IMG/VR virus record: IMGVR_UViG_3300033075_001536 | Span: 64,001-128,000 of that record | Direction: 5' to 3' (one strand) | Origin: a virus | Lineage: Duplodnaviria > Caudoviricetes | DNA length: 64,000 nucleotides | Shown here: in pieces, positions 1 through 60,178 of the stretch | Numbering within the stretch: the first letter of the stretch is position 1 | Layout: every line of letters starts with the position of its first letter | Notes under the pieces: generated by a model | The model's database searches: none | What the model was told of the DNA's origin: nothing | The model's input: only the letters and a program-made list of their open reading frames with translations | Translations under genes and position numbers: made by a program

Positions 1-710
1 CCTAAAATTTTATCATAGGATATAACACCAACTTCTTCACCTTTCATAAATTTTTTAATATTAGAACAAATTCTTTTACCTAACCCATCTGCTATATTTA
101 ACTCTTTATCATTATCATCAAAAGCATAAATTTTGCTACTATCCACATTAAAAGTAAGTCCAAATCGAATATATGGATTAGATGTATTTACATATTTATC
201 TAGATAATTTGTATTTGGTGTCAGTAGTTTTTTACCAATCTTTTTAATCACTACCCATTGTTGATTTTTTCCAGGATTGTGGTTGGTATATTTATCAAAA
301 TAAGATTTGGTTTTTATACACCAAGAAGGAGATCCACAATTAAGAAGTCCTTCGTAAGTCATTACTCTAAAATAATCATAAACCCCATCCGTAAATTGAA
401 ATTTATACCCATTATCTGCTTGTACAGAGGTTTTGTCCATTAGATAATCAGATAATTGAATGTAGTCTAACTTTAATGCTTCACCAGCATTAATATTTAA
501 TTCGACCAAAGAATTATAAATAGATTGAAGCTCGTCTAATGGAACATTATCAACAAAATGTAATTTAGTTAGAAGTCCTAGGTATCCAGATTTGTCTTTA
601 GACATCTCTCTAATTTTAATAAAATCCTCATCCTTATCATATAGTCCTTTTTTTCTAAGAACAGAACGAGCATAATTTAGATTTTCAAATAAATGGAATT
701 TGGTGACCAT
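1..710 (-). CDS. Hypothetical protein, runs off the window edge; paralogue of the N-terminal part of 39077..41161; tag-like N-terminus
   Basis: Not in the ORF track. Manual translation from ATG at 710 gives MVTKFHLFENLNYARSVLRKKG...GYLGLLTKLHFVDNVPLDEL...GSPSWCIKT, open to the edge. Resembles FGYAYLFVYFHFVEKVPLEEI...SHCIK in the 694-aa protein. Confidence 0.8.
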   Translation of the reverse strand, partial: MVTKFHLFENLNYARSVLRKKGLYDKDEDFIKIREMSKDKSGYLGLLTKLHFVDNVPLDELQSIYNSLVELNINAGEALKLDYIQLSDYLMDKTSVQADNGYKFQFTDGVYDYFRVMTYEGLLNCGSPSWCIKTKSYFDKYTNHNPGKNQQWVVIKKIGKKLLTPNTNYLDKYVNTSNPYIRFGLTFNVDSSKIYAFDDNDKELNIADGLGKRICSNIKKFMKGEEVGVISYDKIL

Positions 711-740
711 TTATTATATATTAAAACTAATATATAAATT
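711..740. promoter_or_regulatory. Divergent pair of AATATATA motifs (putative late promoters)
   Basis: ttattatatattaaaactaatatataaatt between divergent starts at 710 and 741. Confidence 0.55.
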
Positions 741-1196
741 GTGAAATATTTAAAAAAGTTGAATGAAAGTAAAGATGGTGTCAATCCAATGAATTCTAAA
801 GATTTGGATGAAGAAATATTGTACATCTGTATGCCCTTAACAGATAGAGGATATAGTTTAGAAGCTCTTCACCAATCAGGATATGTGACTTACAATATTT
901 TTACACAAAATAGTTTTTTCTTTTATACGAATTATAAAAATGATCTTAAATCAATTGGAAATAAAACTAATAAAGAAAAATTCTTTGAAGACTTTCAATT
1001 ATATACAAAATACTTGAGTATCATAAGCGATGAGTTTCCAGAAGTATTTGATAGAATTTGCTCAATGAAAGGTATAAATGATTTTATGTTCATGGGATGT
1101 GGTATTCAATTTTCATTCAATTATAGTGGTGGGTATATAAAAAGAGCAAATCCGATTATGTTGGCAGGTGATGCTCCATCAAATTATAGAAGTTAA
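741..1196 (+). CDS. Tagged hypothetical protein, paralogous family
   Basis: Starts MKYLKKLNES; contains EEILYICMPLTDRGY...FDRI. Confidence 0.75.
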   Translation: MKYLKKLNESKDGVNPMNSKDLDEEILYICMPLTDRGYSLEALHQSGYVTYNIFTQNSFFFYTNYKNDLKSIGNKTNKEKFFEDFQLYTKYLSIISDEFPEVFDRICSMKGINDFMFMGCGIQFSFNYSGGYIKRANPIMLAGDAPSNYRS

Positions 1197-1198
1197 AT

Positions 1199-1603
1199 AT
1201 GAATAGTATATACCAACTTATGGAAGAAATAAAATCGATTTCGTATATTATAGAAGATGAAACATTTTCATTTTTTAAACATAAAATTCAATTAAAAATA
1301 TCAGTAGAGCTAGAAAAGGATAGCAATTATGATATTTTTAATATAGTTCTATACCCAGATTGGAGTGAGGAAATATCAAACCGTGGAACAAATTAATATA
1401 TTGTTAGGAAAAGATTTTTATCAAAAATATTAAAGAGTGATCAATTTAAAGAATACTTTGATAGAGTAAAAGAAATTTGTAAATCTGATGGATTTGAATC
1501 ATCAGGAACAAATAATGATGGATCCGAAATACTTATTGGATTTTGGAAAAACAAATCAAGTATAATTAAAGAGTATTACCAGTTTGTCCAAACATTTCTT
1601 TAG
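1199..1603 (+). pseudogene. Paralogous-family ORF interrupted by one in-frame TAA (1394-1396)
   Basis: The frame continues after TAA as YIVRKRFLSKILKSDQFKEYFDRVKEIC... to TAG at 1601-1603, completing the family motif. Confidence 0.55.
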
Positions 1604-2807
1604 CTCTTTCCATCCATCTTTGAGCTTGCTTTAATTGAGAAGTTTCTGACTTAACATATCTTTTGATCATAGTTAGTTTATCACGGCCATCCACCATTCC
1701 CATTACAAATGGGAATAAAGGATGTTTTCTATAATGTAGAGCAAAAGTTTTCCTATCACCATTGATTGGATACTCTGAATATTTTTTATAAAATTCATCT
1801 ATATCATGTGACATTTTATTCACATATCTGGAAACTAAATGTATAACTTGTTCTATTTCAGCAGATTTAGTTGGCTCATCTAACTGAGACATAATATCAT
1901 CAATTTCCTCATCTACAATTAATTTAATTAAAGTGTTTTCACGATTGATTTCAGTGGTAAACAAATGATGTCTATCAAAATACCATTTTGTCTTAACTTT
2001 GATCATCTTACCATTTTCAAATTGCACAATCCATCCTTCTTTTCCTTCTGTAATGTCTGCAGCAGTTACTAAATTATCTAGTACATGCTCTTTCTCAAAA
2101 TTACAAACAGACATAGAATCTAATTTATCCGAAAATTGATTGATATCTAAATACTTACCAGTTTTATTGTCTCTTATTCTAAGTAAAATAAGTTGTGTAT
2201 TTGCATAAGGAACCACAATTCTATTAGTTGGTGAAACATACTCAAAAATTGGAACAATGTCTCTATCAACACAGAATTTTATAAACTCTTGCACGGTCTT
2301 ATCCTCTCCATATATTCTCTGAATTTCAATTGCTTGATCGGATATAAAGGACATTTTAGACCTTCCAACAATCTTTCCATTTGGAAGTGGAATAAAGGAG
2401 GCAAGTGATCCATCTTCTTTATTCATAACATTTAAAACTTTATAATCCTTTACCACCGAATACATAGAATCCGGAGTTTGATTGAGATTAAAAAACTTAT
2501 CTAAAAGTAAATATCTTTTAAATAAAGATCCATCTTTATTAAACACAAAAGTCAGCCCCCTCATTTCAAATGCTTTTACATTTGGTTTTTCTGGAATTGG
2601 GTTAATAAATGAGTTAAAGGTAGCAAAACGATAGTTAAACATGGATATAGGATATCCATCTACTTCTGTTTTAACCTCATAAAAAACACCCTCATCATTG
2701 ACATTACACATCTCCACACACTCTTCATATGTTGGTAGATAGTATTCATGAGGAAATTCTTCCTTTGACTCTTTAATAAATTCCATATATTTAAATACTT
2801 TAATCAC
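1566..2807 (-). CDS. rnl1: T4 Rnl1-like RNA ligase with tag-like N-terminus
   Basis: FEMRGLTF, KFFNLN, motif I KEDGSL, FEYVSPTNRIVV, EGWIV, KVKTKWY are typical of Rnl1. Confidence 0.9.
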   Translation of the reverse strand: MIKVFKYMEFIKESKEEFPHEYYLPTYEECVEMCNVNDEGVFYEVKTEVDGYPISMFNYRFATFNSFINPIPEKPNVKAFEMRGLTFVFNKDGSLFKRYLLLDKFFNLNQTPDSMYSVVKDYKVLNVMNKEDGSLASFIPLPNGKIVGRSKMSFISDQAIEIQRIYGEDKTVQEFIKFCVDRDIVPIFEYVSPTNRIVVPYANTQLILLRIRDNKTGKYLDINQFSDKLDSMSVCNFEKEHVLDNLVTAADITEGKEGWIVQFENGKMIKVKTKWYFDRHHLFTTEINRENTLIKLIVDEEIDDIMSQLDEPTKSAEIEQVIHLVSRYVNKMSHDIDEFYKKYSEYPINGDRKTFALHYRKHPLFPFVMGMVDGRDKLTMIKRYVKSETSQLKQAQRWMERAKEMFGQTGNTL

Positions 2808-2811
2808 AAAG

Positions 2812-3225
2812 TTAATCTAATTTTTTGAAAGCAAATATTAATCTATCACTAATTAATATATCTATCATCTTTAATCCAATTTCTTCCATTCTACTGTCTA
2901 TTTCTTCTATAAGTTCTATGTGTTTAGGGTCCACATTTTTTTCAATAAGTTTTTCGTCCCCATTCTCTTTATGAATGTAAATTCCGAAATATAAATAGGT
3001 GTGGAAAAACCATTGAACATCTTTTCTAAGAAGTGTTGCTGGTGGGATTCTAAAGCTAACTTGCACTTGATCAATTTTTAAATTATCTTGATAGTTTCTT
3101 TTTTTACCAAATTCTATTTTAAAGTCATTATCATGAAATCCAAATTCATCTAAAAAGTCATTAAAAATGTTTCTAATTTCTTCTTGATCAATTGATTCCT
3201 TAGTAAATTCTATATACTTTTTCAT
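2812..3225 (-). CDS. Tagged hypothetical protein, paralogous family
   Basis: MKKYIEFTKES; EEIRNIFNDFLD...SRMEEIG. Confidence 0.8.
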   Translation of the reverse strand: MKKYIEFTKESIDQEEIRNIFNDFLDEFGFHDNDFKIEFGKKRNYQDNLKIDQVQVSFRIPPATLLRKDVQWFFHTYLYFGIYIHKENGDEKLIEKNVDPKHIELIEEIDSRMEEIGLKMIDILISDRLIFAFKKLD

Positions 3226-4658
3226 ATAATTTCATCTCTTATTTCCATCCAAAGCCAAACAAACCTTTCAAATCCCTCATCCATTTCCTCTCCTTCCATG
3301 CATCTTTCAATAGTTGTTTTTCTTCTATGATAGTCATCTACACTACCAGCAACAAATAGCACAAATTCTTTCATAATAATATCATAACAACCAATCCATA
3401 TATCTGAATCTTTTCCAACTTTATTTTTATACCAAATATCAAAAAATTGATTTCCTCGATGATTTATCCTAAAATCTGGATACTCCTTCATTAAAGATCT
3501 ACTAGTTTCAATATACTTAGAAAACTCACCTTTAATTTCTGACTCATCTACTATTTCCTCAATATAGCTATTAACATCATTTTCATCCTCACCCAACCTT
3601 TTGTATATTTTAATTGGATTTTTTATTTCTTTTTTGGATTCTTTAATCATAATATTATTTGAAAATAAGACAGAAATTGTCATAGAATCAAATTGCCAAT
3701 ATATGTGAACATTTTTTAGCTTAAATCCATCGTCTTCTAATCTCTCACAAGCAATCATAAATTCTTCATCAGATTTTAACTTTATTTCCGATTCTTCACA
3801 AACTTTTGGAAGCCTATCTAAATAGGAATAGTCCGTATTTTCCTCTCTTTTCTTATGTAGTTTCCAATTAAACATTTTAGAGAATTGTTCATGTGGAACT
3901 TCAAATTCAACTCTAAACTCACATTGACCATTAAGAATATCTAACCTTTTCTTTTTATCCTTTAGACTTTTATATCGATGTTTTTTAACATATTCCTTTC
4001 TAAGCTCAACAAGATCACCAGAAACCTCCATTTTTGAATTGTGTATATCATGTTTATCCAAAAAATCCGTAAATATATTTTTAACATCTTCAAGTGATGG
4101 AATAGATATTTTTGATTCCATGGTTGCTTGATATCCACCAAATTCTCCTCTTTCTTTATACCTTTTAGCTTGACTGTCCATTTTTGAGAATCTAAAAACT
4201 ATTTCGTTATAATTGAAATTATTAAAAATCTTAATATCTGGATATCTTAAATAGTATCCAAGATCTTCCACTCTTTCTGATATATCCAATATCAAGTCTG
4301 AAGCATCATCGATATATTTTTTATGAGCATATTTATTTATATCATCATTAGCTCTATGAAACCCATTGAAATCTACATCACCTTTAAAAACTTTAAATTT
4401 TATCACAACTAGAAAGTGTTTTCTTAACAATAGTTCATCAAATGCAAGTTCTTTTTTAGCATGGAATACATATTTATTTAAATGCTCAGCAGTAAAATTT
4501 TTAACCACCTCAAATCCTTCGTGTAAACTAAAATGATCTAAATAATCTGTAAAAATATTTAAAATATCTTCATCATCAATTGGATGATTATCATCTTGCC
4601 AATTTCCATCCACCCATTTTTCACCAATAAAATCTTTATATTTATTCAGAATTGCCAT
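3222..4658 (-). CDS. Tagged protein with two tandem copies of the paralogous domain plus a third module
   Basis: EDILNIFTDYLD..ERVEDLGY and EDVKNIFTDFLD..ERLEDDGF; linkers TMES and IKES. Confidence 0.8.
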   Translation of the reverse strand: MAILNKYKDFIGEKWVDGNWQDDNHPIDDEDILNIFTDYLDHFSLHEGFEVVKNFTAEHLNKYVFHAKKELAFDELLLRKHFLVVIKFKVFKGDVDFNGFHRANDDINKYAHKKYIDDASDLILDISERVEDLGYYLRYPDIKIFNNFNYNEIVFRFSKMDSQAKRYKERGEFGGYQATMESKISIPSLEDVKNIFTDFLDKHDIHNSKMEVSGDLVELRKEYVKKHRYKSLKDKKKRLDILNGQCEFRVEFEVPHEQFSKMFNWKLHKKREENTDYSYLDRLPKVCEESEIKLKSDEEFMIACERLEDDGFKLKNVHIYWQFDSMTISVLFSNNIMIKESKKEIKNPIKIYKRLGEDENDVNSYIEEIVDESEIKGEFSKYIETSRSLMKEYPDFRINHRGNQFFDIWYKNKVGKDSDIWIGCYDIIMKEFVLFVAGSVDDYHRRKTTIERCMEGEEMDEGFERFVWLWMEIRDEII

Positions 4659-5511
4659 TGGAACCTGGTCTTATTTTATAATATATCATAATTGCTAAAA
4701 TGAGTATATTTGTTCCATAGTTCATCATCATTGGTAGATCTAGTTTATCATAAACATATATCATAGCAAATAATTCACCAAATGCCCATAATAATAAAAA
4801 TGCCCATGACATTCCGTGTGAGTGTTTATCTTTATAGGAAGACCAGGCTTGTGGAATTCCACAAGATGCTAACAGGATAGAACCCAACCAACCCATTAAG
4901 GCAAATAAATCTTTTTTACTTAGGCCATTTGAAAGGTCCAAAATAGTTTCATCATTTAATTTTTCTATATTTTGATTTGGAATTTCATATCCATATTTTT
5001 CTTTCATATGAGACGTTAGGTTTCCGAAAAGCTCATTAAACCTAATAGAATCACCACCAGATTTAGCAACACTATCTATATTGGATAAAATTTTCGATAA
5101 AGTATCATCAGATTTTTTCATTGATTTTGAGTATTCCTCTGCTATTTCAGCTTGAAATTTCATTTTACGAACCCAAGCATCTAACTCTTTTTGTAGTTGA
5201 GTAGAATCCATTTTTTTGTACTTATCTGCTCTTCCAGGATCATTATACTCTTCGTTTGGAACTGCTTTATAATTTGATATATCATGATCATTGATATCAG
5301 ACATCGATTTTTGAAAATATCCATTTGGGTTAAGTGGGCTCATTGGGCTTAAAATATTTGTCACATTACTTGGATTGGAATAATCATATGGATTGGTGTA
5401 TTGCCCCTTTGAATCTGGCGAATTTAACAGAAGTGATCCAACTATTCCTAGCTTGGTCAATCCAGACTTAATTCCTTCATTATGTTCTTCATAGCTTTTT
5501 AGATATTTCAT
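4642..5511 (-). CDS. Tagged protein with C-terminal PQ-loop/SemiSWEET-like membrane domain
   Basis: MKYLKSYEE; GWLGSILLASCGIPQAWSSYKDKHSHGMSW followed by three hydrophobic helices. Confidence 0.75.
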   Translation of the reverse strand: MKYLKSYEEHNEGIKSGLTKLGIVGSLLLNSPDSKGQYTNPYDYSNPSNVTNILSPMSPLNPNGYFQKSMSDINDHDISNYKAVPNEEYNDPGRADKYKKMDSTQLQKELDAWVRKMKFQAEIAEEYSKSMKKSDDTLSKILSNIDSVAKSGGDSIRFNELFGNLTSHMKEKYGYEIPNQNIEKLNDETILDLSNGLSKKDLFALMGWLGSILLASCGIPQAWSSYKDKHSHGMSWAFLLLWAFGELFAMIYVYDKLDLPMMMNYGTNILILAIMIYYKIRPGSNGNSE

Positions 5512-5523
5512 ACCTATTATATA

Positions 5524-17838: not shown

Positions 17839-18921
17839 ATGACTAAGCAAGAATTTTTAGAAAAAGCTAGAGGAAAACATGGGTATAAGTATCAATATCC
17901 GAATTTAAATGATAAAATTTTATCTACCGATGATATAGAAGTAGTATATGAAGGAAAAACATACACACAAAAAGTTGTTAAACATATAATGGGTAGGTGT
18001 CCAGAAAAAAATACTTTAAGGAAATCCACTTCTGAATTTATATCAGAAGCCAAATCTATTTGGGGAGATAGATATGACTACTCACTGGTGGATTATAAAG
18101 GGGCATTAAAAAAGGTAAAAATAATTTTTGAAGGTATTATATTTGAGCAAAAAGCTATATCACATTTACAGGGACAGGCTCCAGAAAAAAATTTAAATCA
18201 GGAAAATTTTATAAGAAAATCAAAAATAAAACATGGTGATAAATATGATTACAGATATACAAAATTCAATTCTGGTGATTCTCCTGTTATGATAGGGTAC
18301 AATGGTGTGTTTTATTTACAAAAACCATATCAACACCTAGTTGGAAATTGCCCAGAAAATTTAAGACTATCAACAAGAAAGACAACGAGTTCTTTTATTA
18401 GAGAATCTATGTTGGTTCATGATTTTAAATATAATTATGACAAAACCGACTATATAAAAAACCAAACCAAAGTCATAATCACTTGCCCTATACACGGTGA
18501 TTTCTCACAAAGACCATTATCACATCTACAAGGATCTGGGTGTCCAAATTGCAATGAATCAATTGGTGAAAAAAAAATTGCCAAATTTTTGAATGAGAAT
18601 AAAATCTTATATGATAGACAATATAAATTTCCAGATTGTAGGAATATATTTGAACTACCGTTCGATTTCTATATCCCATCTATGCGCACTATAATTGAAT
18701 TTGATGGTAAACAACACTATGAGCCAATGGAATTTTTTGGTGGGGTAGAATCATATGAAAGACTGAAAGAAAATGATAAAATAAAAAATAATTACTGTGA
18801 AGAAAATTACATTAATTTAATTCGGATTCGTTATGATCAAATTGAAGATATTCAAAATATTTTATGGGAAAACTTAAAAGTTTTTATAAAAATGGTCTCC
18901 AAAAATAAAAGAATTAATTAG
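17839..18921 (+). CDS. Putative homing endonuclease (repeated HG.KYDY DNA-binding units plus PD-(D/E)xK/Vsr-like domain)
   Basis: Four HGxKYDY-like repeats, CPIHG..HL.GSGCPNC, FDFY, IEFDGKQH, D..K..YC. Confidence 0.82.
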   Translation: MTKQEFLEKARGKHGYKYQYPNLNDKILSTDDIEVVYEGKTYTQKVVKHIMGRCPEKNTLRKSTSEFISEAKSIWGDRYDYSLVDYKGALKKVKIIFEGIIFEQKAISHLQGQAPEKNLNQENFIRKSKIKHGDKYDYRYTKFNSGDSPVMIGYNGVFYLQKPYQHLVGNCPENLRLSTRKTTSSFIRESMLVHDFKYNYDKTDYIKNQTKVIITCPIHGDFSQRPLSHLQGSGCPNCNESIGEKKIAKFLNENKILYDRQYKFPDCRNIFELPFDFYIPSMRTIIEFDGKQHYEPMEFFGGVESYERLKENDKIKNNYCEENYINLIRIRYDQIEDIQNILWENLKVFIKMVSKNKRIN

Positions 18922-24243: not shown

Positions 24244-24273
24244 ATACTATATATTAAAATTTTCAAGTAAAAA

Positions 24274-27443: not shown

Positions 27444-27472
27444 ACGAAGTATATATTTAAAACAATTTTCAT

Positions 27473-35657: not shown

Positions 35658-35797
35658 GTTATTCTTTTATTTTTTTGACCTATATCTTCAAGACTTTCAT
35701 CTTTCAAAAGTATTACTTGAATACTCGACATAGATTTGAAGCGAACAGCTACATGGATATATATCAAAGTTGATGTCCGTTGTTTAATATATAATTA

Positions 35798-41171: not shown

Positions 41172-42635
41172 TTATTGTTTTAAAACTCTTTTTATTTCAG
41201 ATTCATATATTTTCCACATTAAATTTTCCTTTACTTTAATGAAGGGTGATATTTTTTTAACTGTTTCAAAATCACCATTATCTAGTGCTGTATCTAAGAT
41301 ATCCTGTAATTGGCTTTTACGCATGCTTGAATAATCCACTTCTTTGGTTTCCTCAGGAGTTTCCTGAACTTCTTCAGCTTCTGGAGTTTCCGATTTTGGC
41401 TCATCCTCATAGTCTGGAAGAACTTGCTGAAGTTCCCATTTATCTAACTCGTTTATAACGAGACTAACAAGTCCATCTACCTTTGTTCTAGCATCAGCAG
41501 TTTTTGATAATATTCCTTTCATTAAAGCTAAAAATTCTCTAGCTGGCATTTCTATCATTTTACCATATACATGCTCTCTTAAATTTGGATATTTGTCAAT
41601 TTCTCTGTTTTGATTGATGAAATCTCTCAAATCGGCAGCTATTTTTGGACCATATCTAAAATCTTCAGCCTCATCAGCTAGTGTGTCTGTATTTAGGAAA
41701 GTTATTTCGGCTGTTCTTGGATCTTGTGGAATTCCTTTAGCAGATATTACTTCATATAATCCTTTTATAGTTTCATGAATTAGCATTGGGAAATCAATTC
41801 CTCTTGCTTTTATACAAGGTCCTGTTGGTTCATCTTCTTCCTTTTCATCCTCATCTTTAGGTTTTTCTTCCTCTGCCTCATATTCTTTTGGCTCTTTTGG
41901 TTCCCAGTCCACTTTAACAGCACCAGCAAATCCTTCTGGTTGCTCTTCCATCATCTGTGCTTTCACATCAATTGGAACAACCCAATCTAATTTTTCTGCG
42001 GTGTCGGTTATTCTGTTCCAAATATCTAAAATTCTATTTGCTGTTTGATCACCATATATTTCAACTAATTTTTCACGAACCATTTCATGATGAAGCATAT
42101 GCTTTGCATTTTTAGCTTCTCCTTGCTGAATATTGTTGGCTATTTTTCTTTTATGAATTTCTGCTCTTACTTCAGCATCTCTTAACTCTTGGTAGGTTGG
42201 CATTTCACATTGTTCACATTCCTCATCTTTCATAAATTGACCAACTTTATTTGGTCCAAGTAGTTTTATATCTAGTTCGACATCTTGTAAAATTTCTGGA
42301 TAATGCAATCTAATTAGGTCTTCTGCAAGTTGCTCAAGTTGTGTAAATCTTTGTTGAACTTGTTGCTTTTGGTTTCTTGATCCACCTCCACCGTAAAATG
42401 TTTGAGGATTAATAATATCTCCGATCATAAGTTGCATATTTTGTTCAACAAGACCCATTATCTCTCTACCATATCTCATGGCAAGCATTTGATTGTCAAT
42501 GCCACCTGCTTTTCTACGACCTTCTTCTTCAGTGTCTCGCAAGTAATTTCCACTTCTATCACCAGCTTCACCAGGAATAGCAGGATTTCCTTTAATGGTA
42601 ATTTCCTCTTTTACAAATTGTGTATATTTTCTCAT
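41172..42635 (-). CDS. Tagged hypothetical protein, likely virion-associated
   Basis: MRKYTQFVKEE; FPMLIHE..KG; C-terminal ALDNGDFE. Confidence 0.75.
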   Translation of the reverse strand: MRKYTQFVKEEITIKGNPAIPGEAGDRSGNYLRDTEEEGRRKAGGIDNQMLAMRYGREIMGLVEQNMQLMIGDIINPQTFYGGGGSRNQKQQVQQRFTQLEQLAEDLIRLHYPEILQDVELDIKLLGPNKVGQFMKDEECEQCEMPTYQELRDAEVRAEIHKRKIANNIQQGEAKNAKHMLHHEMVREKLVEIYGDQTANRILDIWNRITDTAEKLDWVVPIDVKAQMMEEQPEGFAGAVKVDWEPKEPKEYEAEEEKPKDEDEKEEDEPTGPCIKARGIDFPMLIHETIKGLYEVISAKGIPQDPRTAEITFLNTDTLADEAEDFRYGPKIAADLRDFINQNREIDKYPNLREHVYGKMIEMPAREFLALMKGILSKTADARTKVDGLVSLVINELDKWELQQVLPDYEDEPKSETPEAEEVQETPEETKEVDYSSMRKSQLQDILDTALDNGDFETVKKISPFIKVKENLMWKIYESEIKRVLKQ

Positions 42636-42637: not shown

Positions 42638-42904
42638 TTATTTTAAATATTTTTCAATGTCTTCACCTTCTTCATCCATTAAAGCAATAAATCTTTCAGC
42701 TACTTCTTTTTCAGTAGATTTCTTTTTTGCTTTTGGGCCTGGTGCAACACTTGGCTTGTCCCTTCTTACTGGACTAGGTCTCTTACCCGGATCTTGCCTT
42801 CTACCTGGCTCAGTTGGAGTAGTGGATGGTTTTGTTCCTGGTGAAGGAGCTGGCGCTGGTTGAGCTTCCTCATTGAACTTATCAAATTTTTTTATAAATC
42901 TCAT
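42638..42904 (-). CDS. Tagged small Pro-rich protein
   Basis: MRFIKKFDKFNEE-AQPAPAPSPG... Confidence 0.75.
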   Translation of the reverse strand: MRFIKKFDKFNEEAQPAPAPSPGTKPSTTPTEPGRRQDPGKRPSPVRRDKPSVAPGPKAKKKSTEKEVAERFIALMDEEGEDIEKYLK

Positions 42905-44071: not shown

Positions 44072-44596
44072 ATGAAATATTTAAGAAAATTTGGTGAAAA
44101 ATTTGAAATTTCCGATGAACAAGAATCTGAATTAATGAATATTTTTTCTGAGCGTGGTTGGAACTTGGTTGATCATAGAGTTGAGTTCTATGAAAATCCA
44201 AATAAAAATCTTTCTGGAAAATCTGGAACCATTAAAAGTGTTAAGAGTGAAGTAGCAACGGTTGATATAGACGGTAAGGAATATCAGGTTCCTTTTAATG
44301 AATTATTGGATAAAAATTTGGCAAAAATATATAGAAAGGAATCTCCTTTTAAGTCGGGTCCGGGGTTTGAGTATAAAACTATTGATGACTATCCACAAAG
44401 TGTTCGACTAATTTATAATAGACTTACTCCAGATCAAAAGAAATTTGTGGATGATAATGTTGAAAAATTTGCTAAAGTGGCTAAGAAGATGTTTTATAAA
44501 GGTGATAAAGATTGGAAAAAGTTCTTTACTAAAGAAACCAAAAAAATAGATAGTTTATCTGAATTGATAAATTCAATGAATAGTTATATGATATGA
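44072..44596 (+). CDS. Tagged hypothetical protein
   Basis: MKYLRKFGEKFE; KOW/SH3-like GKSGTIK..V.VDIDG. Confidence 0.72.
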   Translation: MKYLRKFGEKFEISDEQESELMNIFSERGWNLVDHRVEFYENPNKNLSGKSGTIKSVKSEVATVDIDGKEYQVPFNELLDKNLAKIYRKESPFKSGPGFEYKTIDDYPQSVRLIYNRLTPDQKKFVDDNVEKFAKVAKKMFYKGDKDWKKFFTKETKKIDSLSELINSMNSYMI

Positions 44597-45063
44597 GGAA
44601 ATTTAGTAAAATATCGGAAAGTGTTGAATTTAAGAAATTTAAAGTTTCTGCTAGTATAGATATTTTAGTAGAAGCTGAGAGTGAGGGAGATGCTGGATAT
44701 CAATCTGATTCTATTTTAGGTGGGATTGAAGAACAAATAGATTTTAGAATTAATAATATTGAGGAAATTTCTGAAGAGGAATTTAAAAAATTAACTGAAA
44801 ATATGGAATTCAAAAAAGATCAATCTTGGGAAGAAAAAAATGACAAATTGGTGAAGACATTCCAATTTGAGGATTTTAAATCATCTATTAAATTTATCAA
44901 TCATGTTGCTGATATAGCAAATGCTACAAATCATCACCCTGAAATAAATAATATATATGATAAGGTAACTATTAAATTATCTACACATGATGCTGGTAAT
45001 AAAGTTACAGATAAAGATAAAAGAATGTCTCAAAAAATAGATTCATTATGGAAACAAATTTAA
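44593..45063 (+). CDS. Pterin-4a-carbinolamine dehydratase-like domain fused to an acidic tagged leader
   Basis: KTFQFEDF, NHHPEI, LSTHDAG..VTDKD. Confidence 0.85.
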   Translation: MRKFSKISESVEFKKFKVSASIDILVEAESEGDAGYQSDSILGGIEEQIDFRINNIEEISEEEFKKLTENMEFKKDQSWEEKNDKLVKTFQFEDFKSSIKFINHVADIANATNHHPEINNIYDKVTIKLSTHDAGNKVTDKDKRMSQKIDSLWKQI

Positions 45064-45608
45064 AAATACCAAATGGCTTTAAAAATATTGCCGTACCTTC
45101 GGTTGCTGTCTTATCTAAAGACGATTTAAAACAAGTAAGTAATGGTGTAGAGCCAAAGATAGATAATAAACAAATATGTCCATCTTTTTTGATGGGTGTT
45201 GATCATCCAAATTTAGAAAAAGGACCTGATTCGGTTTCAAAATTCTTTTCAAAGTTATTTGAAGCTCGTCAAATGGCACATATATTTCATTTACAAGTAA
45301 ATGGCCAACCAGGATCTGGATGGGAACATACTGCACTTGGAGATTTTTATGAAAAATTATTGGAATTTACAGATGATATTATAGAAACCTATCAAGGGCA
45401 ATATGGAATTGTAGAAGGATATGAGATGATTGATACTAGCGCTACAAGAGATTATAACTCTTTAAAATATTTACAATCATTGGTTGAATTTATAAAGAAA
45501 GAGAGATATAATTGTTTATCTGAAGAAGATTCGCACCTACAAAATATTGTGGATGAAATTGTTGCTCTTGTTTATAAGACTATTTATAAACTAACCTACA
45601 TGAAATGA
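45048..45608 (+). CDS. Ferritin/Dps-like (DUF5856-type) protein
   Basis: HIFHLQ, EH.ALG.FYE, D.IIE.YQG.YG, LQNIVDEI, YKL. Confidence 0.75.
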   Translation: METNLKIPNGFKNIAVPSVAVLSKDDLKQVSNGVEPKIDNKQICPSFLMGVDHPNLEKGPDSVSKFFSKLFEARQMAHIFHLQVNGQPGSGWEHTALGDFYEKLLEFTDDIIETYQGQYGIVEGYEMIDTSATRDYNSLKYLQSLVEFIKKERYNCLSEEDSHLQNIVDEIVALVYKTIYKLTYMK

Positions 45609-46246
45609 AATTTGTTAAGAGATTTGAATCCATTTATGGAAATTTTGAAGAAAAAGATGTTTCTTTAGAAAGGATGTTGTATTTAATTTGTGTTGCAAAC
45701 GATGATTGTGTATATGATGCTCCTGGTCCAGAAATTGCTCACCATGAAATATATGAGGGAGATTTTCCAATATTGAACTCAATTATGGATGATAACAATA
45801 GTGATTTTTTAATGGAGGATATAACTAAAGATATTTCAGGAGTTATAAAAAAATTATCCGACAAAGAAAAAAATAATATCAAAGAATTATATCATAAGTT
45901 AAATAGAACATATCGATTGGAAAAGTTCATTACAATAGATGATATTAAAGAATTAACTTATGATTTAGTTGATTCTGGATTTGAGTTGGAGTGGAAAATT
46001 TGGTGTGCTAAATTTAAAACTCCTAATGGATATTTTTCTTCTTTGAAAAACTTCCCAACCACAGAAATAGATATTAAATTCTCTTGTGATGAGGAATTGG
46101 ATAAATATTTTAACATGTCTGAAGATATCCAAACTTTAATAGAGAGACTAAGAGATAGCTACCAGGTTGATTTTAAAATAAGGCCTCATGGCAATACCAA
46201 TCTACCAATGATATCTTATAAAATTACTATTAGTAACAAGGATTAA
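45605..46246 (+). CDS. Tagged hypothetical protein, paralogous family
   Basis: MKFVKRFES; DDIKELTYDLVDSGF...IERL. Confidence 0.75.
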   Translation: MKFVKRFESIYGNFEEKDVSLERMLYLICVANDDCVYDAPGPEIAHHEIYEGDFPILNSIMDDNNSDFLMEDITKDISGVIKKLSDKEKNNIKELYHKLNRTYRLEKFITIDDIKELTYDLVDSGFELEWKIWCAKFKTPNGYFSSLKNFPTTEIDIKFSCDEELDKYFNMSEDIQTLIERLRDSYQVDFKIRPHGNTNLPMISYKITISNKD

Positions 46247-46548
46247 TATAGGAACTGACTTCCTTTATCGTTATAATTCTTCATATTATTTGCAACATTA
46301 TCTATGTTGGATAAAGAATCGGATATATTTTTACTAATTAATTGTAAATTGGCAATAGAGTCATCAATTTGATCATTTGATTTTTTAGAATCTGACTGAA
46401 AATTATTTAATTCGTTTAAAAGTCCGTCAATATATTCCAATTTTAATTTAAAAAATTGTGCCATTTTTACCATCTCATCTTCGATATCACTGACTCTATC
46501 TGGAGATAATTGCATTTGAGCTTCGTTAAATGGTTTAAGATGTTTCAT
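46243..46548 (-). CDS. Tagged coiled-coil protein
   Basis: MKHLKPFNE; heptad pattern. Confidence 0.75.
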   Translation of the reverse strand: MKHLKPFNEAQMQLSPDRVSDIEDEMVKMAQFFKLKLEYIDGLLNELNNFQSDSKKSNDQIDDSIANLQLISKNISDSLSNIDNVANNMKNYNDKGSQFLY

Positions 46549-46559: not shown

Positions 46560-46895
46560 TTAAAATTTTGACTCAATTTTAACCACTTTTATATTTATGT
46601 AGTATCCGTGATGTTGTCCACCTATTTTTAGATAACACTTTAATCCAATTTCTTCCAATCTATCATTTATCTCTTCTAAATATGGAATCATTTGACTATG
46701 GAATCTACCAAGTACTTTCCTATCATTGGATTCAAATTTGCTCCTGTAAATAATAGTTTTAGTTGCTTTTATGTAGATTTTTTCCAAACCAAGTTGTGGA
46801 AAATCATCCAGCAATTCTTGAAAGATATCATCAATGTCCACATTTCTGCTAACACCATTATTTATTTTAGATTCAAATAATTTTAAATATCTCAT
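46560..46895 (-). CDS. Tagged hypothetical protein, paralogous family
   Basis: MRYLKLFES; DIDDIFQELLDD...DRLEEIG. Confidence 0.78.
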   Translation of the reverse strand: MRYLKLFESKINNGVSRNVDIDDIFQELLDDFPQLGLEKIYIKATKTIIYRSKFESNDRKVLGRFHSQMIPYLEEINDRLEEIGLKCYLKIGGQHHGYYINIKVVKIESKF

Positions 46896-46933: not shown

Positions 46934-47608
46934 ATGTCAAAGTATTTAATATGTGAGTTTAATGAGTTTACAAACATGAGAATGAACCCAGATTCGGTTC
47001 AATCATCTGTTCATGTAGATGATCCACAATTATCTATCAATGCTTTTGATAAGCATCAAGATGCTATTCGTCAAGCTCTTTCAAGAATAGATGGTATTTT
47101 ACATTCTTTATCAAATTCTAATCAGTATAAGTTTTTAAAGGGTAAATTAGGATTAGAGGATCAAAATATCACCAATATGAGAATTATTCGTATTGTTAAA
47201 TCTGGAGTTAGTTATGATGTTTATATTTCATTCACCATTAACAATGAAAATGAATATTGGGGAGTAATTAAAAATATTCTTTCACTTAATCCAGAGGTAA
47301 TATCTGAAGTATTTAAGGACGGTGATTTGGTGCAGACAAAGGAGTGGGTAATTAAAACTAAGGGACTTTTACTAAAAGTGATTAGAAATTTTTTAAAACC
47401 GGATCCAGGAAAATGGAAGCTAATTAATGATAGCATCACCTGTTATTCTTTAGAAACTGGAAAGCTAATGAAAATGGACAAAGGCGCTGAAGTGGAGGTT
47501 CTAAAATGTTATGATGATTTAATTATAATAAAATACGATAATATTAAATATTCACTTCATGGTGATAACTATGTTTATTTTAATTATTGGTTTGAAAAAT
47601 TAATCTAA
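46934..47608 (+). CDS. Hypothetical protein with tag-like start
   Basis: MSKYLICEFNEF; AATATATA upstream. Confidence 0.75.
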   Translation: MSKYLICEFNEFTNMRMNPDSVQSSVHVDDPQLSINAFDKHQDAIRQALSRIDGILHSLSNSNQYKFLKGKLGLEDQNITNMRIIRIVKSGVSYDVYISFTINNENEYWGVIKNILSLNPEVISEVFKDGDLVQTKEWVIKTKGLLLKVIRNFLKPDPGKWKLINDSITCYSLETGKLMKMDKGAEVEVLKCYDDLIIIKYDNIKYSLHGDNYVYFNYWFEKLI

Positions 47609-53670: not shown

Positions 53671-54486
53671 ATGAGAATCTTAAAATTTTTACCATTTTTC
53701 GAAAATATTTCTGAGAATCCAATTGCTGATATACAAGAATATAATCAGAAGATGAAAAATGCTTTTTTTGACAAGTTATTTTTTCTTGGTAAGATAAAAT
53801 TTGATGCTTTGGTGGATTTTGGATGTGCGGATGGATCTTTATTAGAAAAAATTAGCAAATATTCAAAAGCTGATTTATTTGGATATGATGTTGAGCCACA
53901 TGCTGTTGATCTATCAAAAAATAGACTTGGAAATAAAGCAACTATTCTAGATAATTGGCATGAAATTTTGGGACAAGTGAATGAATATCATTCACCAGCA
54001 ATTTTACTAAGTTCCGTAATTCATGAAGTATATTCTTATGATAAATATGTAAATTATTTTTGGAATGATTGCGTTTTTAATGACAAATTCAAATATATTA
54101 TTATTCGAGATATGATCCCATCTGGTGATATTGATGATGTCCATAACTTTTCAGAAGATGTTAGAAAGGTAAAATCAAAGATCAATAATAAATATTTAAA
54201 TGACTTTGAAAAGATTTGGGGTAAAATGGAAGATAGTTATAGACAATTCGCACATTTCCTTTTGAAATATAAATATATACATAACTGGAATAGAGAAGTG
54301 AAAGAAAATTATCTTCCTTTGACCATTTCAGAATTAAAAGAAAAAATACCAAGTGGGTATGAAATTGTATATGAAAGTAATTTTATTCTTCCTTATTTGC
54401 AACAAGAAGTAAATAGAGATTTTGGGATTAAATTCAGACAACCAACACACACAAAGATGATTATAAAAAATAATAATTTCAAATGA
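53671..54486 (+). CDS. Class I SAM-dependent methyltransferase with tag
   Basis: LVDFGCADG, GYD, LSSVIHEVYSY, IIIRD. Confidence 0.82.
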   Translation: MRILKFLPFFENISENPIADIQEYNQKMKNAFFDKLFFLGKIKFDALVDFGCADGSLLEKISKYSKADLFGYDVEPHAVDLSKNRLGNKATILDNWHEILGQVNEYHSPAILLSSVIHEVYSYDKYVNYFWNDCVFNDKFKYIIIRDMIPSGDIDDVHNFSEDVRKVKSKINNKYLNDFEKIWGKMEDSYRQFAHFLLKYKYIHNWNREVKENYLPLTISELKEKIPSGYEIVYESNFILPYLQQEVNRDFGIKFRQPTHTKMIIKNNNFK

Positions 54487-55190
54487 TACACATTAGAAGA
54501 TTTAACGAAAACATCATTGATTTCAATACGGATAATGTGAAGTCATTTAAGAAAGAACTATTTAAGGAACTCAAAAAGAAAGGTGCTGGTCATGGATATT
54601 TTGGACCGCCAAAGGGATTAAATCTACAAGAACTTAAAAAAATTGGAGATAAATATGACATTGAGGTGGTCGATTACGAGACATTTTTCAGAGAGCTTCC
54701 AACAAAGGAAGATCAAAAAACTGCTCCAAGGAAACATGGTGGTCCACCAGCATTTGCTTTAGTAAATCCAACTACACATAAAGCTCGTGTAGTTCTTATT
54801 GCTCCAAAAGTTGATATTGGAATTGGTGAGATGATTTGTCATATGCTTACCCACGAAAATATACACATTCAACAATTTGCCAAAATTAAAGCAAAGAAAG
54901 GAAAGTTGGATGATTATGATGTTGCTCCTGGCAGTCCAAATGATAGAAAAAAATATTTCTCCGATAAAAAAGAAGTGATGGCATTTTCACATTCAATTGT
55001 GGATATGCTAGTTAATCAACAAGGATGTGAAACATTTGAAGAATGTATAAAAAAATTGGACAGAAACCCAATTTGGGGAGATATTAGAAGAAGCTGTGAT
55101 AAAGATATTCAAAACCGATATAAAAAATATATTTATCAATATCTAAAAAAAGAATTTCCAGATGAAGATCAAAAATTGGACAAAATTTAA
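54483..55190 (+). CDS. Zincin-like (HExxH) protein with tag
   Basis: MIHIRRFNE; LTHENIHIQQ...YFSDKKEVMAF. Confidence 0.7.
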   Translation: MIHIRRFNENIIDFNTDNVKSFKKELFKELKKKGAGHGYFGPPKGLNLQELKKIGDKYDIEVVDYETFFRELPTKEDQKTAPRKHGGPPAFALVNPTTHKARVVLIAPKVDIGIGEMICHMLTHENIHIQQFAKIKAKKGKLDDYDVAPGSPNDRKKYFSDKKEVMAFSHSIVDMLVNQQGCETFEECIKKLDRNPIWGDIRRSCDKDIQNRYKKYIYQYLKKEFPDEDQKLDKI

Positions 55191-55956
55191 TGAAAGTTCC
55201 GACAGTCATATTGTAAAAGGAGTTGAAATAACTAAATTTTTTCAAAGTGATAGATATAAAAAATTTATTCAACACTTTTTAATTGAAGAAAATGAATTAA
55301 AAGAATATTTTTCGGATGTGTTGGACGACAATTCTGATATTAAATTTGAATTAACCAAGGATACTATTTTTTTTCTTGGAAATAAAAGAGTATATGGATT
55401 TAAGCAAGCTGATTCATCTTTTATAAAATACAGCGTTTCTCTATTAAGGACGGATGGAAAGCCAACTAGTATTAAATCATTTAAGGAATATTTGAATAAA
55501 TATTTAGATCTATTAGAAGATATTGAAATTGCAATAGAAAGAATTCTAGATGATTATGATATTAAACATAAAGTTGAAGACAATATAGATCATTTTAGAG
55601 AACAAAAAAGTATAGTCATTTTATTTTACAAGGAAATTCCTTTTAAAGAGCTAATGTCTGAATTTAAATTATTTTTAGCAGAAAATGATGCTTCATCTTG
55701 GTTAGTGAAAGGAATTTCAGAATTTAAAAAAATATTTACGGAATTTGGTGCTCCTGAAAGTTTTAAACTAGAAGACCACATTGATCTTCATCCAGATTGG
55801 GAAGAAAATGAGTTTGGTGATGTGGTGGTTGGTGTGTCGCTTAATGATGAAATATCTGCTATTGGAACCATTGATAAAGAAACGGGACAAATTGATTATA
55901 ATACCAATGAAATAGAAAAAGTAATAGAAGAATTATTTGAAAATGAAATACATTAA
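55162..55956 (+). CDS. Tagged hypothetical protein, paralogous family
   Basis: MKIKNWTKFNES; ELKEYFSDVLDD...IERILDDY. Confidence 0.75.
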   Translation: MKIKNWTKFNESSDSHIVKGVEITKFFQSDRYKKFIQHFLIEENELKEYFSDVLDDNSDIKFELTKDTIFFLGNKRVYGFKQADSSFIKYSVSLLRTDGKPTSIKSFKEYLNKYLDLLEDIEIAIERILDDYDIKHKVEDNIDHFREQKSIVILFYKEIPFKELMSEFKLFLAENDASSWLVKGISEFKKIFTEFGAPESFKLEDHIDLHPDWEENEFGDVVVGVSLNDEISAIGTIDKETGQIDYNTNEIEKVIEELFENEIH

Positions 55957-56509
55957 AAAATTTGAAGAAATAAAACTAACACTAAAAGATGATCTAGGGA
56001 CATATTTCTACAACCTAGGTGATATGGATGGATTTAATTTGGAATACAGACCAGATGACTTCTATTTTTTTAAACTATCTCATATGGACGGATCCTTTGA
56101 ATATAACATGGATATTTTTGATGAGATACAAGAGTCATTGGATCGTGCGGCTGATGATGGATTAAAATTAGATAGAAGTTGGATAGAACCGAATATACCT
56201 GAATTTATGTCGAGTGTTGCTTGTGATAGAAAGACAGCAATAAAAAATAAATGGAATTCGATTTGGATACCAATGTCTAATAATGAATACCCTAGTCCAA
56301 ATGATTTAAGATTTTCTAAATTTCCTATTTATAGAAAAATTTATGTTGATAGCAAAAATAAAAAAATGGAATCCATGGTAAGGTCAAATAAAAAGATGGA
56401 TATGGATGTTGAATATCCGACCTCTCCATCTGATTTTATTTATACCAATAATTTAAAAAGTATTACTTTTTTATTTTTTGAGCAAGACTTAAAAAAATCT
56501 AAATATTAA
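55943..56509 (+). CDS. Tagged hypothetical protein, paralogous family
   Basis: MKYIKKFEE; DDLGTYFYNLGD...LDRAADDG. Confidence 0.72.
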   Translation: MKYIKKFEEIKLTLKDDLGTYFYNLGDMDGFNLEYRPDDFYFFKLSHMDGSFEYNMDIFDEIQESLDRAADDGLKLDRSWIEPNIPEFMSSVACDRKTAIKNKWNSIWIPMSNNEYPSPNDLRFSKFPIYRKIYVDSKNKKMESMVRSNKKMDMDVEYPTSPSDFIYTNNLKSITFLFFEQDLKKSKY

Positions 56510-58619: not shown

Positions 58620-58668
58620 TTGTAGTAGTATATAGTGTACCTAAAATTTGAATTTTTATGAAGGTGGA

Positions 58669-59322
58669 TTATTTATGATTAAATAGAGCTAATGTAAAAT
58701 CCTCACTAGAATAATCATTGATTAGACTTAATTCACTTTTTAGTCCGTGTGATAGATATTTCTTTAGCAAATTTTGGTTGTAGTAGGTATATCTTAATGT
58801 TTTGTGGTTTTTGGTTTGTCTAACATTACTCGATATTCTATCTTTATCATTTTCGATAAAATTGGCCATAATTCCTTTATTACATATTGTTTGTCCATAT
58901 TTAAAGAACTCTAAAACATCTCTTTCATTCATCCCAACTGTAAATACCCCAGACGCAACGATCCAATCATGATTCTCTTTTATATCATGTATGCTATCCA
59001 CTACTTTAAATTTTCTATCTGGATATTTCTTTTTTGCATTTTTAATCATACTTTTTTGAATATCCACTCCTAGATAATCTACCTTTTTCTGCATTGCGTC
59101 TGCCCATCTAGATAGATCACCTAATCCACAACCGTAGTCTAGTAAACTATCACCACTTTTTATGTATTTCAAAAACACATTAAATCTATCTCTTTGTGAT
59201 CCAGAACTAACCCACCCCACCGCATCTGGGTCATAAATATCCTTCGTACATCTGTGTTGGTAGAAATCTTCTATAAATTTCCTTGGATTTTTAAGTTCTT
59301 CGAATAATTTTAAATATTGCAT
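58669..59322 (-). CDS. Class I SAM-dependent methyltransferase with tag
   Basis: MQYLKLFEE; VGW.S..SQ..RF, LLDYGCGLG, YLGVDI, DWIVASGVF. Confidence 0.88.
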   Translation of the reverse strand: MQYLKLFEELKNPRKFIEDFYQHRCTKDIYDPDAVGWVSSGSQRDRFNVFLKYIKSGDSLLDYGCGLGDLSRWADAMQKKVDYLGVDIQKSMIKNAKKKYPDRKFKVVDSIHDIKENHDWIVASGVFTVGMNERDVLEFFKYGQTICNKGIMANFIENDKDRISSNVRQTKNHKTLRYTYYNQNLLKKYLSHGLKSELSLINDYSSEDFTLALFNHK

Positions 59323-59337
59323 TTAATATATATTAAA
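59322..59337. promoter_or_regulatory. Perfect palindrome TTTAATATATATTAAA, putative bidirectional promoter
   Basis: Fills the 15-nt gap between divergent ATGs at 59322 and 59338. Confidence 0.6.
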
Positions 59338-59691
59338 ATGAGAATCAAATTATTTAAAGACTTCAATGAGCATTTTTCAATTGGCCCAGTTCCAATCGTA
59401 AGAGAAGAAAGACTTATTTCTTTTACTAGAAAAGCATTTGCTGAGTTTAATGAATGGAAACTAACTGATAAATTTATGCAAGATAAGATCATTAAATTAA
59501 TTGAAGATACGATTCGAGATCCATTTAGAGGACTTGGAAAACCAGAACAATTAAAAGGTCGTGGTAAAAAACACGGACATCTAAATAAAGCTTCTTGGTC
59601 AAGAAGAATTTCTGATGAGCATAGACTAGTCTATGAGGTTTCCGGAACAGACATTAAAATAACTTCTTGTAAGGGACATTATGATGATTAA
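59338..59691 (+). CDS. yoeB: YoeB/Txe-family ribosome-dependent RNase toxin with tagged N-terminal extension
   Basis: KIIKLIED..RDPF.GLGKPEQLK, WSRRISDEHRLVY, SCKGHY; likely start MRIKLFKDFNE. Confidence 0.9.
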   Translation: MRIKLFKDFNEHFSIGPVPIVREERLISFTRKAFAEFNEWKLTDKFMQDKIIKLIEDTIRDPFRGLGKPEQLKGRGKKHGHLNKASWSRRISDEHRLVYEVSGTDIKITSCKGHYDD

Positions 59692-60178
59692 GTCTTTTGG
59701 TAATTTTATTAATGAAAATGTTAAATCTGAATTAGATTCAATATTGTATCTATTAACTGATTTAGGACTTGAGGCCACAGTTGAAGGATGGGATATAATC
59801 TCAAAGAGATGGTCTATTGTTAATTTAGATTCAATAATTGGTGTGTTACTCACAACAAAGTCCTTGAGTGATAGTATTGACTATCGAATAAAGATTACTA
59901 AAAGGTTAATGGGAAATAGAAATCCGGCAATTCCAATACGAATGGAGGATATCAATTATTTTAAAAATTTGCACGAAACTTCGGAATATCAAGAATTTTT
60001 AGATAGACTTAGTGAATTTTGTGAAAATAAATATATTATAAAACCTTCTAATAATATTTATCCTCTAAAAGGTAGTGTTGAAGTAAATATTGGGGATTTG
60101 AGTGATATTGTCGGTGATTATACCATCGGTCTTGTTAGAATTATTTTCCTAACCAAAATTAAAAATCCGAACCTTTAG
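59681..60178 (+). CDS. Tagged hypothetical protein, paralogous family
   Basis: MIKSFGNFINE; ELDSILYLLTDLGL...FLDRLSEFC. Confidence 0.75.
   Translation: MMIKSFGNFINENVKSELDSILYLLTDLGLEATVEGWDIISKRWSIVNLDSIIGVLLTTKSLSDSIDYRIKITKRLMGNRNPAIPIRMEDINYFKNLHETSEYQEFLDRLSEFCENKYIIKPSNNIYPLKGSVEVNIGDLSDIVGDYTIGLVRIIFLTKIKNPNL

Follow-up and report, generated by a model that had tools for sequence, protein, structure and literature searches.

In the 64,000-nucleotide window analysed here (bases 64001-128000 of the 170,678-bp IMG/VR virus contig IMGVR_UViG_3300033075_001536, 29.6% G+C), many otherwise unrelated genes open with the same short peptide. This N-terminal tag, 9-13 residues long and with the consensus M-[K/R]-[Y/H/F]-[L/I/F]-[K/R]-x-F-[N/E]-[E/N/S], is shared by about a quarter of the genes on the contig, more than a first-pass annotation of the window had stated. 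It is a portable N-terminal signal that is read at the protein level, and it is borne by late accessory proteins of a T4-related huge phage. We propose that the tag is this lineage's counterpart of the T4 capsid-targeting sequence, which would bring proteins to the prohead scaffold and then be removed by a gp21-type protease; the chance that this proposal is correct we put at about even. Judged from the sequences, the capsid of this phage probably receives a very large complement of proteins.

The T4 tag, M-K-T-Y-Q-E-F-I-A-E, undergoes a single cut after its last Glu (PMC8442874). In T4, suppressor analysis traced targeting chiefly to residues 4 and 7, with residues 8 and 10 serving in processing, and the internal proteins that carry the tag co-purify with the scaffold protein gp22 (PMC9026906). 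The same literature anticipates the targeting sequence as an evolutionary device for the packaging of varied proteins (PMC9026906). Our literature search found no paper on genome-wide tags of such a kind in huge phages.

Identification of the N-terminal tag

No Shine-Dalgarno sites were visible on the contig and starts picked by such sites were clearly wrong, so each selected open reading frame (ORF) was begun at its first ATG, a rule that gave 236 ORFs covering 96% of the contig. Two complete genomes of uncultured phages, LR745206 (635 kb) and LR756502 (642 kb), are linked to the contig by weak DNA matches. Gene order at its right end mirrors that of LR756502 at approximately 229-262 kb, and the contig terminates within a major capsid gene of the gp23 family.

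The tag was scored with an anchored position matrix of eight columns, built from 14 strict seeds with leave-one-out scoring and with its threshold set at the 99th percentile of internal windows (1% false positives). The matrix flagged 53 of the 236 contig ORFs, against 2.4 expected. Patterns that tolerate insertions and deletions, and thereby allow a longer variant, raised the number to 65, and inspection by eye to approximately 80. The main form, variant A, reads M-K-Y-L-K-x-F-N/E-E; a T4-like form is referred to as variant B. Counted from the first ATG or GTG, the tag starts at residue 1-5 and places a putative P1 Glu at position 8-13.

LR756502 (988 ORFs), scored whole with the matrix trained on the contig, served as an independent test genome. 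There, 157 ORFs were flagged, as compared to 22 +/- 4 after residues 2-16 had been shuffled within each protein and 18 under a null of pooled N-terminal composition; at 12 bits or more the counts were 65 and, in shuffles, 0.7. Internal Met positions hardly ever match (3 of 840 above 6 bits). The first-pass annotation had called for a composition-matched null and had named AT-rich translation-initiation bias, present equally in all genes, as an explanation that would refute its reading. The motif passes this null and is lost on shuffling of residues 2-16, and thus AT-rich N-terminal composition does not explain it.

All 18 N-termini that the earlier annotation had quoted were found where it had placed them, and its estimate of about 30 carriers was fair, since 24 clear and approximately six weak cases were counted among the 87 ORFs of the window. 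It was also right that RecA, GreA, Dam, the NrdJ-type reductase and PhoH lack the tag. Its description of many carriers as enzymes was overstated, in that a Pfam domain was found in only six of the 29 carriers of the window, or in seven if a weakly tagged ankyrin protein is included. Some matches were set aside as non-tags, namely the N-termini of a DUF7831 protein (28770) and of GyrB-like and ThyA-like proteins outside the window.

The signal lies in the peptide

Every degenerate residue within the tag is encoded with the synonymous codon use of the genome. For Leu, the frequencies of TTA, CTA, CTT and TTG are 0.45, 0.20, 0.17 and 0.15 in the tag and 0.43, 0.20, 0.18 and 0.14 in the genome. 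The substitutions seen within the tag are those that suit a peptide (Lys/Arg, Tyr/His/Phe, Leu/Ile), and LR756502 orthologues retain the pattern with changed residues. In thirteen reciprocal-best pairs of the contig and LR756502 both members are tagged, and most of the apparently one-sided pairs are threshold cases. Genome-like codons, conservative substitutions and a pattern kept in orthologues together imply selection on the peptide. Third-position conservation, which a nucleotide-level start-region signal such as a downstream box or a recombination cassette would leave, was not found in the tag codons. Nor does the tag resemble a Sec, Tat or lipoprotein signal peptide: it has no hydrophobic core of about 10 or more residues behind a basic N-region, charged and aromatic residues alternate in it, and the true lipoprotein signals of the window (at 32002 and 32661) differ from it in appearance. 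The approximately 23 residues that follow the tag are acidic, with a net charge of about -2.

The proteins behind the tag are for the most part unrelated. When the first 20 residues were removed, all-against-all BLASTP joined only a few carriers, in small families. On this result and on the genome-like codon use, paralogy and a nucleotide-level cassette were both rejected. Pfam domains recognised in carriers are PQ-loop, AAA_28, pterin-4a-carbinolamine dehydratase, two methyltransferases, a YoeB-type toxin and ankyrin. Two of these show most directly that the tag is an addition. Six phage-type homologues of the YoeB carrier (114-121 residues) begin with a 27-residue extension, made up of the tag and a linker that contains Pro, and bacterial YoeB proteins (84-88 residues, approximately 60% identical) begin exactly at the end of this extension. 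In the AlphaFold2 model of the carrier, residues 1-25 are unstructured, with a predicted local distance difference test (pLDDT) score of approximately 50, and a confident YoeB fold begins at residue 26. Similarly, phage-type homologues of the dehydratase (148-217 residues) have the tag and an extra N-terminal domain, and the cellular enzymes (92-102 residues) have neither. In a family encoded beside the portal gene, some orthologues carry a nine-residue tag and others start right after the tag position.

In LR756502, most of 133 tagged proteins searched against Pfam had no match. The single matches comprised PPK2, a CCA-adding/poly(A)-polymerase head domain, T4-type RNA ligase 1, NUDIX, a SET domain, a 2'-5' RNA ligase/Acb1-like phosphoesterase, lysozyme, a lytic transglycosylase, HNH nucleases and methyltransferases. 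Membrane segments are scarcer in carriers than in other ORFs of this genome (4% vs 9%), and tagged genes cluster in accessory regions.

Resemblance to the T4 capsid-targeting sequence

Variant B has the spacing of the T4 peptide, with aromatic residues at positions 4 and 7 and with a hydrophobic residue and Glu at 8 and 10. A key-position pattern was derived from these four mapped T4 positions only (aromatic-x-x-aromatic-[I/L/V/M]-x-E within the first 16 residues). It occurs at 10 N-termini of the contig, five of them in the window, where 0.4-0.9 would be expected, and at 28 in LR756502 against approximately 2. As a control, in 183 ORFs from the 50-169-kb part of the T4 public record the pattern finds IPII and IPIII only. 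Ungapped BLOSUM62 comparison with the T4 peptide gives the same picture: scores of 20 or more were reached by 14 N-termini on the contig (approximately 1 expected) and by 35 in LR756502 (approximately 2 expected).

Head assembly proteins of the lineage

The first-pass annotation had advised a search for a gp21-like protease. A protease of the gp21 fold, fused to a scaffold, was located in close relatives, whereas an S77 protease gene was not found on the contig. In LR756502 (225272-227371) and LR745206 the fused gene lies between the portal and capsid genes and its product has 699-727 residues; the gene also adjoins the capsid gene in 78 IMG/VR relatives. The N-terminal domain of approximately 150 residues aligns with T4 gp21 (hhalign probability 91%, E 1e-6) and keeps N-R-N-x-R-x-Y, H-P (N-H-P) and V-S-S-R (V-S-S-R-x-x-G) motifs. 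An AlphaFold2 model of this domain, made for an IMG/VR relative from 32 sequences, had 5JBL, T4 gp21, as its sole match (E 1e-8, template modelling score 0.63).

The remainder of the protein is a scaffold-like tail of 10-14 tandem 13-residue repeats, N-L-D-K-N-I-x-Y-S-E-Y-[I/L]-A-E, which are present in all 78 IMG/VR relatives recovered, plus one only 38% identical. Every repeat is built with the T4 spacing (aromatic-x-x-aromatic-[I/L]-x-E), its last three residues being I/L-A-E, a triplet shared with the T4 tag and with the N-terminus of T4 gp22. N-termini match the repeat itself as well: seven on the contig against 0.7 expected and 10 in LR756502 against 2-3, a lower enrichment than that of matches to the T4 peptide. 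No description of a protease-scaffold with such repeats was found in the literature searched.

A single-sequence search of the capsid protein against solved structures gave no match, pairwise BLASTP of its N-terminal region against T4 gp23 was too weak to locate the cleavage site, and PHROGs supplied no structural names for the proteins adjoining the capsid gene. Just downstream of the capsid-gene region lies a tagged gene for a very acidic, low-complexity protein (contig 165604-166452; LR756502 231351-231869). The tag pattern is kept in 18 orthologues of this protein while the remainder drifts. As a candidate for a prohead-core or internal head protein it can be compared with T4 gp67/gp68.

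A motif shared by tags and prohead proteins

The sequence hydrophobic-x-Glu-Asn, a putative cleavage motif, is common to the tags and to the N-terminus of the protease, the scaffold repeats and the propeptide of the capsid protein. The protease begins with a segment containing I-V-E-N, its Glu at residue 8, that is invariant in 32 sequences; every scaffold repeat yields I/L-A-E-N; and the capsid protein has E-Y-A-E-[F/Y]-H-x-I-N-E-N near residue 43, invariant in 72 relatives. Across these same 72 relatives the first 55 residues of the capsid protein are near-invariant and the following approximately 30 vary freely. This pattern marks a likely maturation site, nearer the N-terminus than that of T4 (residue 65).

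Within residues 4-16, hydrophobic-x-Glu occurs in 92% of tags on the contig and 77% of those in LR756502, as compared to 26-33% of other ORFs. The Glu lies mostly at position 8-9 in variant A or 11-12 in variant B, and Asn or Ser comes directly after it in 42% of the cases on the contig. The T4 core proteins gp22, gp21, gp24, gp68, IPII/III and Alt likewise have a Glu at 9-13 following a hydrophobic residue. This layout fits removal of the tag by the protease, an event that would take place after the conserved Glu.

Promoter boxes and a second tag class

A AATATATA box lies 8-35 nucleotides (nt) upstream of the LR756502 homologues of terminase, portal, protease, capsid protein and gp25, and by analogy with T4 late promoters it is likely a late promoter. 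Upstream of the start and within 45 nt of it, a box precedes 51% of the tagged genes of LR756502 as compared to 19% of the untagged ones (odds ratio 4.6, p 1e-17); for the contig the corresponding values were 49% and 35% (p 0.05). Because the box precedes head genes and is enriched before tagged genes, the N-tagged proteins are taken as a late class, made during prohead assembly, on this indirect, promoter-based argument.

In the window the box stands only 4-7 nt before many starts (for example at 5512-5530, 27444-27460, 35780-35797 and 59323-59337), at which distance the mRNAs may be leaderless or nearly so. Some boxes lie between divergent genes and could serve both.

The genome also encodes a class of small proteins with a C-terminal tag, R-D/N-x-K-L-x-x-I-L. 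None of 48 genes of this class has the box, and the N-terminal and C-terminal tags occur together in two proteins where 8.4 would be expected (contig and LR756502), which suggests that they mark two separate sorting classes.

Tagged genes in the window

At the left end of the window, the ORF at 741..1196 (+; 151 residues, variant A) starts with GTG, and a box ends 3-4 nt before this codon. Three tagged ORFs follow on the other strand: 2812..3225 (-; 137 residues, 10.6 bits), with a tag resembling the N-terminus of T4 IPI; 3222..4658 (-; 478 residues), with a T4-like variant B tag and the key-position pattern; and 4642..5511 (-; 289 residues, variant A, 15.4 bits, box 6 nt upstream). The first three of these four belong to no Pfam family; the last ends in a PQ-loop membrane domain (1.5e-9) of three helices, with hydrophobic segments at residues 202-220 and 235-253. 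The ORF at 1566..2807 (-) retains only the second half of a tag, and its LR756502 orthologue has a full T4-like tag; the truncation may reflect recent loss or an overlooked start codon. An ORF of 1825 residues (5947-11424, -) has neither a tag nor a Pfam match.

Further along the minus strand are 18914..19459 (-; 181 residues, variant A, 13.0 bits, no Pfam family), 19469..19924 (-; 151 residues, variant B), which has the key-position pattern and an LR756502 orthologue that keeps the pattern with different residues, and 27024..27443 (-; 139 residues, variant A, 18.9 bits, box 6 nt upstream). At 35798..36346 (+; 182 residues, variant A, 17.9 bits, box 4 nt upstream) the tag precedes an AAA_28 P-loop kinase-like domain that begins at residue 15 (8e-32). 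The start of the next ORF, 36346..36726 (+; 126 residues, variant A, 19.3 bits), overlaps the stop of this gene and has no box, and 37267..37626 (+; 119 residues, 15.2 bits) has one 7 nt upstream. An ORF of 694 residues with ankyrin repeats (39077..41161, -; Ank_2 5e-11, box 4 nt upstream) is weakly tagged and has two paralogues outside the window with clearer tags. Beside it, 41172..42635 (-; 487 residues, variant B) has the key-position pattern and a tagged LR756502 orthologue in which conservation continues straight after the tag, and in 42638..42904 (-; 88 residues, 14.6 bits, orthologue tagged) the tag is followed by a Pro/Ala-rich stretch.

Between 44 and 48 kb, variant A tags begin the ORFs at 44072..44596 (+; 174 residues, 16.4 bits), 45605..46246 (+; 213 residues, 12.5 bits), 46243..46548 (-; 101 residues, 20.9 bits, box 5 nt upstream, orthologue tagged) and 46560..46895 (-; 111 residues, 17.6 bits). 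The dehydratase carrier, 44593..45063 (+; 156 residues), consists of the tag, a conserved N-terminal domain of approximately 45 residues and the enzyme domain (Pterin_4a, 1.4e-24, residues 60-152). A possible tag displaced by three residues was noted by eye, under the matrix threshold, in 46934..47608 (+; 224 residues, box 5 nt upstream).

Further carriers are 53671..54486 (+; 271 residues, 14.4 bits, box 5 nt upstream), with a weak S-adenosylmethionine (SAM)-methyltransferase match that lies below the curated cut-off (Methyltransf_12, 4e-4); 54483..55190 (+; 235 residues, 14.8 bits), with a variant A tag ending in I-N-E-N; 55162..55956 (+; 264 residues, 12.5 bits); 55943..56509 (+; 188 residues, variant A, 19.9 bits); and a SAM-dependent methyltransferase at 58669..59322 (-; 217 residues, variant A, 18.6 bits, box 4 nt upstream; Methyltransf_31, 4e-9). 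The YoeB carrier at 59338..59691 (+; 117 residues) joins the tag and Pro-containing linker of approximately 27 residues to a complete toxin domain (YoeB_toxin, 1.3e-24, residues 29-115), and this N-terminal extension might hold the toxin harmless until clipped. No YefM-like antitoxin gene lies beside it; its neighbours are the tagged methyltransferase and a tagged ORF with no assigned function. The latter, 59681..60178 (+; 165 residues, variant B), has the key-position pattern, and its tag starts from the second Met (59684). A Ro60/TROVE protein with a vWA domain (Pfam) is encoded at 56499-57950 (-). Elsewhere on the contig, at 61094-62992 and 23218-24264, are genes for DnaK- and DnaJ-like chaperones, recognised from their N-termini only.

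Discussion

Our own tests bear out several parts of the first-pass cargo-tag reading: the peptide is a portable, protein-level N-terminal tag on unrelated proteins, variant B resembles the T4 sequence at its mapped positions, the lineage has head machinery of the T4 type, and the late-type box is enriched before tagged genes. Scaffold binding, cleavage, packaging and injection are the parts that we infer. According to the model that we propose, tagged accessory proteins would be made late in infection and would attach by their tags to the scaffold core within the prohead as it assembles, the tag mimicking the scaffold repeat (Y-S-E-Y-I/L-A-E-N). The protease would then remove the tag after the conserved Glu (hydrophobic-x-Glu, followed by Asn or Ser), and the mature protein would stay in the head and probably enter the host with the DNA. 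In its fullest form the model has a single cleavable, scaffold-mimicking peptide loading at least 150 late proteins, a sixth to a quarter of the genes, into each capsid for delivery with the DNA; this form we offer tentatively, as possible and somewhat doubtful. Size alone is no bar to packaging. One copy each of 173 tagged LR756502 proteins amounts to 4.0 MDa, about 1% of the DNA mass. T4 packs approximately 1000 internal-protein molecules (PMC3012670). From that figure we estimate a protein-to-DNA ratio of approximately 10%, or room for about ten copies of each protein.

Several observations weigh against this model. The T4 likeness claimed at first pass stands for variant B, at the functionally mapped positions, and not for the dominant variant A, in which the aromatic residues are four apart and the Glu comes one or two after the Phe, one residue off the T4 spacing; the class-A matrix gives no match among the same 183 T4 ORFs. 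A tag carried by between a fifth and a quarter of all genes goes, to our knowledge, far beyond any known phage, T4 having about four such proteins. The tagged proteins are acidic (median isoelectric point 5.2-5.6) and T4 internal proteins are basic, and one clear carrier, the three-helix PQ-loop protein at 4642-5511, is an integral membrane protein. The protease-scaffold gene is absent from the contig and is assigned to this phage by synteny with relatives. Tagged proteins show no clear depletion of cleavage-type motifs in their bodies, with ratios of 0.93-1.13 as compared to 1.07-1.18 in untagged proteins and equally variable controls. Finally, in half to most of the boxed carriers the box is only 4-7 nt from the start codon, which would allow the first codons a role in translation.

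The main rival accepts a protein-level tag and gives it another reader, such as a chaperone, timed degradation, proteolytic activation without packaging, or a late structure other than the prohead core. The great number and acidity of the carriers, which include metabolic-looking enzymes and a membrane protein, would suit such a reader, as would the departure of variant A from the T4 pattern, the DnaK- and DnaJ-like genes of the phage and the presence of a second, C-terminal tag system in the same genome. However, no alternative reader was identified, acidic residues are unfavourable in DnaK-binding motifs and are conserved in the tag, variant B matches the T4 positions for both targeting and processing, and hydrophobic-x-Glu-Asn is common to the tag and three bona fide prohead proteins. 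We consider a reader of this kind less likely than targeting to the prohead, though plausible.

Two further explanations would deny the peptide a function of its own. The tag could be a feature of the mRNA, whereby near-leaderless late messages select first codons that are A/U-rich, unstructured or favourable to elongation. Consistent with this, no Shine-Dalgarno sites are visible on the contig, codons 2-10 have a lower G+C fraction in tagged (0.19) than in untagged genes (0.26), with 0.30 for gene bodies, and about half of the LR756502 genes with a box at 4-7 nt are tagged as compared to approximately 13% of the rest. Yet the signal is abolished by shuffling of residues 2-16 (157 to 22, and 65 to 0.7 at 12 bits or more); synonymous codons are chosen as elsewhere in the genome; the residues that replace one another are similar ones, and the His and Arg codons are not A/U-only. 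Moreover, about half of the tagged genes have no box, many of them starting within operons, and box-proximal genes are untagged as often as tagged. This explanation is improbable. Still less probable, and in our view very much so, is that the tag marks common descent within one large family of paralogues, or a recombination cassette that sits at gene starts and promotes gene shuffling. T4-type phages shuffle genes through shared promoter-proximal cassettes, tagged genes here cluster in accessory regions, and a few small paralogue groups include tagged members. Most carriers, however, have no similarity beyond the tag, two are ordinary cellular domains to which the tag has been added, nucleotide identity is not conserved and synonymous codons vary freely, and orthologues keep the pattern while residues drift, as expected of a peptide under selection.

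If the tag is a head-loading signal as we propose, the packaged proteins of these phages would greatly exceed any other such arsenal known, and the cargo would include toxins, methyltransferases, RNA-repair and anti-defence enzymes. The proteins delivered at infection would then be predictable from their first dozen residues, so that an injected proteome could be read from sequence alone, and the prediction would single out, from the hundreds of genes that lack annotation, candidates for host takeover and counter-defence. How targeting of the T4 type extends to capsids of greater size would become visible as well. A concrete and testable model of the binding partner of the tag is provided by the fused protease-scaffold and its tag-like repeats, and a short tag that works with a simple scaffold could be used to fill phage capsids with proteins.

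The closest known system is that of T4 IPI, IPII, IPIII and Alt, in which a peptide of approximately 10 residues likewise begins otherwise unrelated proteins. Both lineages have a gp23-family capsid protein, a gp21-fold protease and a scaffold with related I/L-A-E motifs, gp22 in T4. They differ in scale, a handful of carriers in T4 against 20-25% of genes here (53-65 of 236 on the contig, 157-173 of 988 in LR756502), in the acidity of the carriers, and in that this lineage, unlike T4, combines protease and scaffold with its tandem repeats in one fused protein. In the phiKZ-like giants (SPN3US, 201phi2-1 and phiKZ), many head-internal proteins are cut after Glu by a T4-related prohead protease, and their propeptides are thought to target them into the prohead (PMC5694885). 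The principle, a T4-related protease cutting after Glu within a very large capsid, would be the same. The phiKZ-like propeptides, however, mostly exceed 100 residues and do not amount to a single short peptide common to the proteins, approximately eight proteins are processed in each phage (eight among about 50 head proteins in SPN3US), and no gp22-like scaffold has been confirmed, whereas the lineage described here has a clear repeat scaffold. Encapsulins offer a more distant parallel, in which cargo-loading peptides, short, portable and terminal, send diverse enzymes into an HK97-fold shell. There the peptide binds the shell itself and is not cleaved, only one or a few types of cargo are loaded, and no DNA is packaged.

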